Source: Candidatus Nanosyncoccus sp. (GTDB taxonomy: Bacteria; Patescibacteriota; Saccharimonadia; Saccharimonadales; Saccharimonadaceae). From it: a stretch of 64,000 bases of DNA. The position numbers were made by a program, and so were the translations under genes. The notes beneath the pieces are model-generated. The model saw nothing but the letters and a program-made list of their open reading frames with translations. It was not told the origin of the DNA and searched no databases. Positions 17,009-17,184 of the stretch are shown one piece after another (the stretch's first letter is position 1; each line of letters begins with the position of its first letter). The stretch covers positions 65 through 64,064 of the forward strand of contig JAZSCU010000024.1 in NCBI GenBank assembly GCA_045530815.1, written 5' to 3'.

Positions 17009-17184
17009 TGGCGGAAGCGAAAGGATTCGATCTGAGCGAAGCGAAGAACGAACCTTGCTTTTTTGTGCACGTCCGATAGGACGTGGCGGAAGCGAAAGGA
17101 TTCGATTCGAGCGCGTCAGCGCGAGAACGAGTCCTGCTTTTTAATGCACTGCTGTCAAGCAGTGGCGGAAGCGAAAGGATTCGA
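17009..17184 (-). repeat. tRNA-linked tandem repeat: three copies of the 22-bp tRNA-Ser 3' end with variable spacers
   Basis: TGGCGGAAGCGAAAGGATTCGA at 17009, 17084 and 17163 (the last is the tRNA itself); periods 75 and 79 bp. Confidence 0.92.

Follow-up and report, generated by a model that had tools for sequence, protein, structure and literature searches.

Knowledge of the repeats behind the E. coli tyrT gene goes back to the late 1970s, and that of rtT RNA to 1991, when Bosl and Kersten reportedly found that it is released by processing. To our knowledge, no function or origin has been accepted for either the repeats or the RNA, and in Rfam RtT is handled as an enterobacterial family. 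The rttR locus is described as encoding the rtT RNA of the tyrT operon (10.1101/2024.07.17.603846), and Klebsiella has RtT RNA annotations at two loci, of which one adjoins tRNA-Tyr (PMC4147364). Our search of the literature returned little on rtT and no paper on such repeats in Saccharibacteria or elsewhere beyond the enterobacteria.

In the 64,000-nucleotide stretch of Saccharibacterial DNA analysed here (the window), the plus strand carries three exact copies of the 22-bp sequence TGGCGGAAGCGAAAGGATTCGA, at 17009-17030, 17084-17105 and 17163-17184, for which dinucleotide shuffles of the window give a chance expectation of 0.00 matches. One copy is the 3' end of a tRNA-Ser(CGA) gene, in agreement with a preliminary description of the locus. 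The two spacers, of 53 nt (17031-17083) and 57 nt (17106-17162), are homologous to each other, with 79% identity over 61 nt when the repeat is included (family D2). The array and its immediate neighbours comprise the following features:

17260-17288, minus strand: promoter-like site TTGAAA-17-TAGAAT immediately 5' of tRNA-Ser, its second hexamer preceded by TG (10 of 12 matches, a consensus match only)
17163-17253, minus strand: tRNA-Ser(CGA), whose last 22 nt (17163-17184) are repeat copy R0 (ARAGORN; Rfam tRNA, 59 bits)
17147-17164, minus strand: hairpin H1a, CACTGCTTGACAGCAGTG, beginning with the CA of the tRNA's CCA and not followed by a U run (fold and sequence)
17084-17162, minus strand: unit 1, 79 nt, made up of H1a, an A tract (17138-17142), hairpin H2a (17092-17137) and the tail UUCCGCCA (17084-17091), with repeat copy R1 at 17084-17105 (fold)
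17068-17085, minus strand: hairpin H1b, CACGTCCTATCGGACGTG, directly 3' of the CCA of unit 1 (fold; near-identical post-tRNA hairpins in loci L005 and L021)
17009-17083, minus strand: unit 2, 75 nt, made up of H1b, an A tract (17059-17064), hairpin H2b (17017-17058) and an 8-nt tail, with repeat copy R2 at 17009-17030 (fold)
16992-17008, minus strand: hairpin H1c, CGTTGCCTAAAGCAACG, after the last CCA and followed by A-rich sequence and tRNA-Pro (fold)
16895-16970, minus strand: tRNA-Pro(CGG), downstream on the same strand (ARAGORN, Rfam)
16791-16867, minus strand: tRNA-Arg(GCG), the last gene of the cluster (ARAGORN, Rfam)

Read along the minus strand, the order is promoter-like site, tRNA-Ser, H1a, A tract, H2a, tail, H1b, A tract, H2b, tail, H1c, tRNA-Pro and tRNA-Arg. 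Because tRNA-Pro(CGG) lies downstream on the same strand, the array sits within a Ser-Pro-Arg tRNA cluster. A terminator scan found no terminator-like site on the minus strand from the promoter-like site to tRNA-Pro, and since none was recognised between the units and tRNA-Ser, or between them and tRNA-Pro and tRNA-Arg, they should be transcribed as an operon spacer. The flanking genes include a Mur ligase pair, RhuM/Fic, PAP2, HIT and ValRS, and the window also contains dnaA-dnaN-recF.

In both internal units the hairpin after the CCA is followed by an A tract and then by a longer composite hairpin. The 3' arm of H2a is the copied T-loop and T-stem of tRNA-Ser, and H2b consists of a T arm (AAGG TTCG ... 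CGAAT CCTT) with an 18-nt insert that contains GAGCGAAGCGA on the plus strand. The hairpins after each CCA, the A tracts and the motifs GCAGGACTCG, GCAAGGTTCG and, on the plus strand, GAGCGAAGCGA are all present as first described. It is possible that GCAGGACTCG is a relic of an anticodon arm, a role that is inseparable from its part as the 5' arm of a hairpin. On the minus strand the post-CCA hairpins run into A-rich sequence, at a place where related loci often have a T run. The 195-nt array spacer folds on that strand with a free energy of -60.3 kcal/mol, compared with -42.5 +/- 3.9 kcal/mol for shuffled sequences (z = -4.55).

Three identical 22-mers at regular spacing resemble a CRISPR array, and the locus had been called CRISPR-like on first inspection; the repeats would then be processed and the spacers would be acquired guide sequences. 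The resemblance is confined to this superficial layout, with its 53- and 57-nt spacers. The repeat belongs to a tRNA gene, of which it is the 3' end, and the spacers are homologous both to each other and to units in other genomes. None of the 26 window ORFs scanned against Pfam has a Cas domain (there are 43 ORFs of at least 180 aa, the other 17 lying mostly beyond 47 kb), and no Rfam CRISPR repeat family matches the array region. We rejected this reading, whose chance of being correct is close to nil.

To place the locus among its relatives, the neighbouring PAP2 protein was used as a query and led to 13 loci of Candidatus Saccharibacteria from ruminant guts; an exact-protein look-up of the same protein gave no match. 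The sequencing runs that contain the region are sheep and bovine gut metagenomes. Six of the relatives retrieved in this way include tRNA-Ser(CGA), and a unit follows it in three (L003, L005 and L021) and is missing in the other three (L001, L002 and L007). Scanning metagenomes for a spaced pair of tRNA-end copies yielded 22 contigs, about 19-20 of them with the copies behind tRNA-Ser(CGA); as this pattern, which demands two intact repeats, supplied most of our sample, the apparent conservation of the repeat is inflated. The remaining contigs have a related unit behind tRNA-Ser(GGA) (two contigs) or copies behind tRNA-Asp (one contig, from another habitat). The units behind tRNA-Ser follow a common plan, in which the post-CCA hairpin leads into either a T run, making a real terminator, or the sequence YCAAAAAG, and then into a 5' arm, a small inner stem-loop and the tRNA end. 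The 5' arm reads (C)GGATTCG or GCAGGAYTCG and is complementary to CGAATCC(NNTCGC), the tRNA end spans the T loop to the CCA, and all the units fold alike. Synteny of the locus is conserved, and the genes between tRNA-Ser and the Mur-like gene are variable, including RhuM/Fic, a zeta toxin, VanY and an acyltransferase in the slot downstream of tRNA-Ser(CGA).

The number and the order of the units vary among relatives; a look at copy-number variation between strains had been proposed as a check. Among Logan contigs from related gut metagenomes, unit 2 is missing in two runs (X1 and X4), with 17005 joined to 17081; in a third (X2) the tRNA is followed by the unit 2 spacer and then the unit 1 spacer, in reversed order, and in a fourth (X5) a unit has a different post-CCA hairpin. 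Near-identical tandem duplicates of a whole period, hairpin included, occur in L023, L029 and L034, and decayed distal units or copies in L029 (third unit), L040 (second unit) and L038 (third copy). We infer from this pattern that units are gained, lost and shuffled through recombination between the copied tRNA ends.

Related units also stand behind other tRNA genes. For each of the 95 tRNA genes in the fetched DNA we looked downstream for a second copy of its last 14 nt, and found such copies behind tRNA-Arg(GCG) in L001, L003, L005, L006, L011 (twice), L012, L025, L030 and L043, behind tRNA-Ser(GGA) in L043 and behind tRNA-Gln(UUG) in the window; among 31 phage tRNA genes, none was followed by a copy of its own 3' end. 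The window contains three of these sister units:

42598-42690, minus strand: medium sister unit behind tRNA-Gln(UUG) (gene at 42738-42812) (fold; Rfam RtT, 37.4 bits)
42400-42552, minus strand: second tRNA-Gln sister unit, of the long type (nhmmer E 3.6e-4; 85% identical to the Tyr-linked unit)
11405-11529, plus strand: long sister unit following the tRNA-Tyr(GUA) gene (11276-11360) and the terminator of that gene (11361-11397) (nhmmer E 0.019; fold z = -5.1)

In the larger units the tRNA is followed by a bidirectional terminator, a 5' arm, a module (GGATGAGAACCGTAGGTTCGCACCGAGCGAAGCGAGGTC...), the tRNA-end copy and another terminator. The 5' arm is complementary to the copy, which for Arg and Gln comprises 18 nt, positions 59-76. 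Accordingly arranged, the medium tRNA-Gln unit has a 5' arm, GCTGGTAGGAT, whose pairing partner is the copied 3' end of tRNA-Gln (18 nt, 42598-42615), and is flanked by terminators at 42693-42737 and 42562-42597. The 5' arm of the tRNA-Tyr unit, GGTAGGTC, pairs with GACCTACT, the remainder of its 3'-end copy having decayed, and no intact 3'-end copy was found in the second tRNA-Gln unit. Folding revealed the closing stem in every unit type, with an unpaired 3' tail of 7-10 nt in medium and long units and of 8 nt in E. coli units. The 5' arm matches the local tRNA in all six contexts, namely E. coli Tyr and Saccharibacterial Tyr, Gln, Arg, Ser(GGA) and Ser(CGA). The larger units were inspected by eye for promoters of their own, and -10-like hexamers can be seen, for example TGTTATAAT in L003 and TATAAT at 42559-42564 of the window, inconsistently from unit to unit. 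None of the RNA runs searched covered the Ser array; the sole signal was a 55-nt piece identical to the Gln module in one bovine metatranscriptome contig at a depth of 2, which could be DNA carry-over.

These sister units bear on a second suggestion of the preliminary description, that the repeats are scars of serial integration. In this scenario, successive elements that each bore a copy of the 3' end of tRNA-Ser would have integrated and later been deleted down to ~55 bp each. Integrases that target tRNA genes leave the 3' segment of a tRNA directly repeated from the T loop onward, as in attL/attR partial tRNA genes (PMC9897764), and the array resembles these both in its repeats and in lying beside a slot of variable genes in relatives; phage mv4 is reported to integrate at the 3' end of a tRNA-Ser gene (10.1101/2023.11.06.565760). 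Repeats of the att type, however, bracket kilobases of DNA with an integrase, whereas here they enclose 53-57 nt of conserved and structured spacer, and no recombinase genes were found: 0 of 46 ORFs from the window and 16 loci encode an integrase, recombinase or transposase. The 20 array-adjacent ORFs in the 16 loci, none of them a recombinase, encode CTP synthase, VanY, DUF6512, zeta toxin, NUDIX, acyltransferase, QueH and others. No distal tRNA-end copy lies past the variable genes, at up to 5 mismatches in 21 nt. The search for attP-like partial copies of tRNA-Ser covered viral contigs and phage genomes, and all four viral-contig matches to the tRNA end were complete phage tRNA-Ser genes. 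No genuine phage genome matched the window Gln unit or the E. coli unit; the sole match of the E. coli unit in the phage collection was an annotated RtT RNA on a Salmonella chromosomal contig. The spacers are homologous mutually and across genomes, unlike independent element ends, and the fit of the 5' arm to its cognate tRNA in six contexts is not what deletion scars would give. We regard integration scars as very unlikely and rejected them as an explanation.

The preliminary description had also pointed to the repeats behind E. coli tyrT, and the larger units bear this connection out. The Rfam RtT model (RF00391) aligns end-to-end with the window Gln unit (37.4 bits; E 2e-5 and 3e-6), matching the blocks GGAUGAGAAC, AGGUUCG, CGAGCGAAGCGAG and AUCCU...CCA, and it finds the Arg unit of L030 with 31 bits (E 0.046). 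Both matches are significant but score below the gathering score of 45, so that these units do not formally belong to RF00391. The Ser array gave no match to the model at E <= 1 over 6 kb, nor at E <= 10 over 241 nt. When the E. coli tyrT-tyrV-rttR locus was fetched, its units showed the same layout as the Saccharibacterial ones, and the larger sister units have the core GGATGAGAAC...AGGTTCG...GAGCGAAGCGAG in common with E. coli RtT. A profile built from six Saccharibacterial units alone detects four E. coli units (nhmmer, E 3e-4 to 0.12). The same profile detects Ser(CGA) units in seven loci, always antisense to the tRNA.

In layout the Ser array is of the rtT type, with tandem units directly 3' of the tRNA, each ending with its 3' end and CCA. 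The module core (AGGTTCG ... GAGCG..GCGAG) is present in these units as well, on the strand opposite to the tRNA. The plus strand of unit 1 aligns to AAGG-TTCGCATCGAGCGCGT-AGCGCGAGA of the Arg unit of L043 (z = 10.8) and to E. coli rtT (z = 8.7), and that of unit 2 aligns to the window Gln unit (z = 4.3-5.3); alignments of the minus strand of the Ser units with sister units and rtT were not significant. This likeness of the Ser units to rtT spans only ~30 nt, of which the GGATTCG part is the reverse complement of the copied T loop. It follows that GAGCGAAGCGA on the plus strand, noted in the preliminary description, is the signature core of the family. The Ser(CGA) lineage has this core stem-loop in flipped orientation, in a module reduced to one small stem-loop. 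Because the module is flipped, the GA..GA core reads opposite to the tRNA; its internal loop is UC/UC when read along the tRNA strand and GA/GA along the complementary one. Such a flip speaks against a single RNA-level function conserved in all units.

This orientation raises the question of whether the functional strand of the Ser units is the plus strand. The units might then act as an intrinsic terminator that shields tRNA-Ser from antisense transcription, or give rise to a small RNA whose first 22 nt are perfectly complementary to the 3' end of tRNA-Ser. In keeping with this, all Ser(CGA) units have the family core, GA/GA internal loop included, on the plus strand, the plus strand folds slightly better than the minus strand (-82.5 kcal/mol, z = -5.2), and both composite hairpins are followed there by T5-T6 (17138-17142 and 17059-17064). 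The terminator scan, however, did not flag the T5-T6 sites, as the hairpin loops are beyond its limits, and neither a promoter-like site nor a gene on the plus strand leads into the array. The T run is on the tRNA strand instead in about half of the related loci, which hence have no plus-strand terminator at that place. Nor does the class of a related locus, A-run or T-run, correlate with the direction of its next gene. We consider a plus-strand function distinctly unlikely.

Taken across all tRNA contexts, the unit of the family consists of a hairpin or bidirectional terminator after the preceding CCA, a long imperfect hairpin and a short single-stranded tail that ends in CCA. The long hairpin is closed by a stem formed between the 5' arm and the copy of the tRNA T-loop, T-stem and acceptor 3' strand, and its interior is the conserved module. 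In an alignment of 23 distinct units, which are kin to one another, the named structure is paired in 86% of cells, compared with 14-40% in controls with slid partners. The 3-bp inner stem occurs in the forms AUC/GAU, UUC/GAA, UUG/CAA, ACC/GGU, UCU/AGA and CCU/AGG, with 18 double-sided changes and broken pairs nearly absent, and its observed score was reached by 0 of 500 shuffles. The preliminary description had stated that the idea of processed units would fail if transcription ended at the first hairpin and the repeats showed no structural conservation in relatives. As H1a lacks a U run, this combination was not found, and the structure is kept in relatives with compensatory changes.

The same observations have to be set against a purely local origin, unrelated to rtT. 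Replication slippage would have duplicated the tRNA 3' end and its terminator in tandem, followed by neutral decay, and the hairpins would be leftover terminators and halves of T arms. The whole-period tandem duplicates in three loci and the decay of distal copies in three are what such a process would leave behind, the units contain stretches that look like pieces of tRNA-Ser, namely its T arm and its anticodon or variable arm, and template-switch mutation can produce perfect hairpins and compensatory-looking hairpin changes without selection (PMC8794818). It would not account for the non-tRNA core GAGCG..GCGAG, which E. coli rtT and the units of other tRNAs also contain. The modules are also better conserved than the proteins beside them: the window Gln unit (42598-42690) is 86-87% identical to Arg units of other genomes, and module identity is 85-90% across loci and genomes as against merely 57-80% for flanking proteins. 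The inner 3-bp stem, moreover, appears in at least five covarying forms. A local accident of this kind seems to us decidedly improbable.

The explanation that we favour, with slightly more confidence than doubt, is that the array consists of the tRNA-Ser(CGA) gene and two tandem, miniaturised members of a family of tRNA-linked repeats related to E. coli rtT, which should be transcribed and processed as CCA-ended RNAs and whose arrays are reshuffled by recombination. Modules would spread between tRNA loci, and recombination between the copied tRNA ends, unequal or slipped, would lengthen, shorten and reorder the arrays. The same recombination may keep every copy identical to the selected tRNA end, a form of concerted evolution. 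Enzymes that process tRNA would cut the units out of the transcript as structured CCA-ended RNAs, as has been reported for E. coli rtT RNA, and excision of the Ser units would coincide with maturation of the tRNA-Ser 3' end and the tRNA-Pro 5' end. The tRNA-derived closing stem and the CCA tail may serve as a handle for processing and stability around the module. The Ser units themselves would be degenerate copies.

A broader proposal, tentative and on the whole unlikely, is that RtT-like units are non-coding, self-copying elements of tRNA-gene 3' flanks and form a single family spread widely, from enterobacteria to Patescibacteria, each new copy taking the last 18-22 nt of the local tRNA together with a matching inverted arm. 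A segment of 18-22 nt is also the length that retroelements use as a tRNA primer-binding segment. If the proposal were true, the units could represent a non-autonomous mobile element, with a recombinase acting on the folded hairpin; products of a cDNA or template-switch route; or a natural family of 'tRNA-scaffold' small RNAs whose module function has gone unrecognised in E. coli and Saccharibacteria.

The presence of related units in a distant, genome-reduced phylum turns the tyrT repeats from an oddity of a single locus into a family that can be compared across phyla. In this phylum the association is with at least four tRNA types, each unit carrying the end of its cognate tRNA and a closing stem that co-varies with it. 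The closing stem, the CCA tail and the GAGCG..GCGAG core are constant, and size, core orientation and the polarity of the A or T tract are free to vary, a division that can guide experimenters in what to mutate. For annotators, the results give a reason against labelling such arrays as CRISPRs, pseudo-tRNAs or att sites.

Among known systems, acceptor/T-arm minihelices and engineered 'tRNA scaffold' RNAs resemble the units in having a tRNA-derived closing helix, a free CCA end and a foreign insert; the comparison is based on established minihelix substrates and the tRNA-scaffold method. That the units might be released as CCA-ended minihelices had been put forward in the preliminary description, and the idea suits the short units behind tRNA-Arg in L011 and tRNA-Ser(GGA) in L043, which fold as a true acceptor/T-arm minihelix with a 4-nt NCCA tail. 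It does not suit the Ser units of the window, which differ in having no 5' acceptor strand (no GGAAGCG-like 5' strand) and in leaving 6-8 nt of the 3' tail unpaired.

The closest counterpart is RtT RNA/rttR, the repeats behind tyrT-tyrV (RF00391). The hosts differ, an enterobacterium in one case and a Saccharibacterium (Patescibacteria) in the other. E. coli units follow tRNA-Tyr and measure 178 bp, whereas those described here follow at least four tRNA types (Ser, Arg, Gln and Tyr) and measure 40-190 nt, and the Ser(CGA) units keep one module stem-loop, in opposite orientation, and do not score with RF00391. In both systems, however, the units stand in tandem behind a tRNA gene and each ends in the last 18-22 nt of that gene, including CCA; a 5' arm pairs with the tRNA-end copy and leaves a tail of 7-10 nt (8 nt in E. 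coli), and the core GGATGAGAAC / AGGTTCG / GAGCG..GCGAG is common to both.

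Two further tRNA genes in the window are followed by RtT-like units, in which a hairpin or terminator precedes a long hairpin, closed by a 5' arm and a copy of the cognate tRNA end, and a short CCA tail.

11361-11535, + strand: terminator and long RtT-like unit 3' of tRNA-Tyr(GUA)
42400-42737, - strand: RtT-like region 3' of tRNA-Gln(UUG)
42738-42812, - strand: tRNA-Gln(UUG), upstream of two RtT-like units

Behind tRNA-Gln(UUG), a bidirectional terminator is succeeded by an intact RtT-like unit, whose last 18 nt duplicate the 3' end of tRNA-Gln, and then by a second terminator and a second unit of the long type, which lacks an intact tRNA-Gln 3'-end copy. 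A TATAAT hexamer lies ahead of the second unit (42559-42564). In the Tyr-linked unit, the closing stem still matches the T stem of tRNA-Tyr, and the acceptor/CCA part has decayed.

A stretch of 55 nt from the conserved interior (module) of the Gln unit (window 42611-42665) is identical in a 267-nt contig of a bovine gut metatranscriptome (run X42), which diverges from the window on either side of it. The different flanks indicate that the Gln module is present in another context, and it may be transcribed there.

The surroundings of the tRNA-Ser gene have been rearranged. In the relatives, tRNA-Arg(GCG) lies between tRNA-Ser and the PAP2 gene on the opposite strand, whereas in the window it is found with tRNA-Pro, downstream of the two small units behind tRNA-Ser(CGA) and on the same strand (window 16791-17473 compared with loci L001-L021). 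Ahead of PAP2, hairpins and a T-run terminator-like site occupy window 17290-17440, a segment without a gene. Downstream of the tRNA cluster lies a slot of variable gene content, which holds a RhuM/Fic-domain gene in the window, as it also does in several relatives, and a zeta-toxin gene in the related locus L035 (2370-3059).

The window adjoins the chromosomal replication origin, since dnaA, dnaN and recF are grouped within it. Its other genes include a member of the FemAB family, whose proteins attach amino acids to the peptide of the cell wall.

3871-7566: dnaA, dnaN and recF
14931-15674: Mur-ligase paralogue of 247 aa, middle domain only, beside a full Mur ligase
15718-16764: RhuM/Fic-domain gene
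24746-27973, - strand: ORF of 1075 aa
31380-32378: FemAB-family gene

The 1075-aa ORF had no Pfam match at E <= 1e-5, and neither did the ORFs at 23691-24410, 32469-33083 and 36706-37797.

Short units were located behind tRNA-Arg(GCG) in locus L011 (2769-2930) and behind tRNA-Ser(GGA) in locus L043 (10700-10783). Their predicted fold mimics an acceptor/T-arm minihelix with a 4-nt NCCA tail, and their 5' arms are similar to the 5' acceptor strand of the respective tRNA. In a metagenome contig from another habitat (Ga0302323_100183201, L022 674-839), a terminator stands behind tRNA-Asp(GUC), and after it come a short hairpin unit and a copy of the tRNA-Asp 3' end (TTCGAATCCCGTCGCTTCCGCCA and 8 further nt), which suggests that the tRNA-linked layout may extend beyond the ruminant Saccharibacteria.
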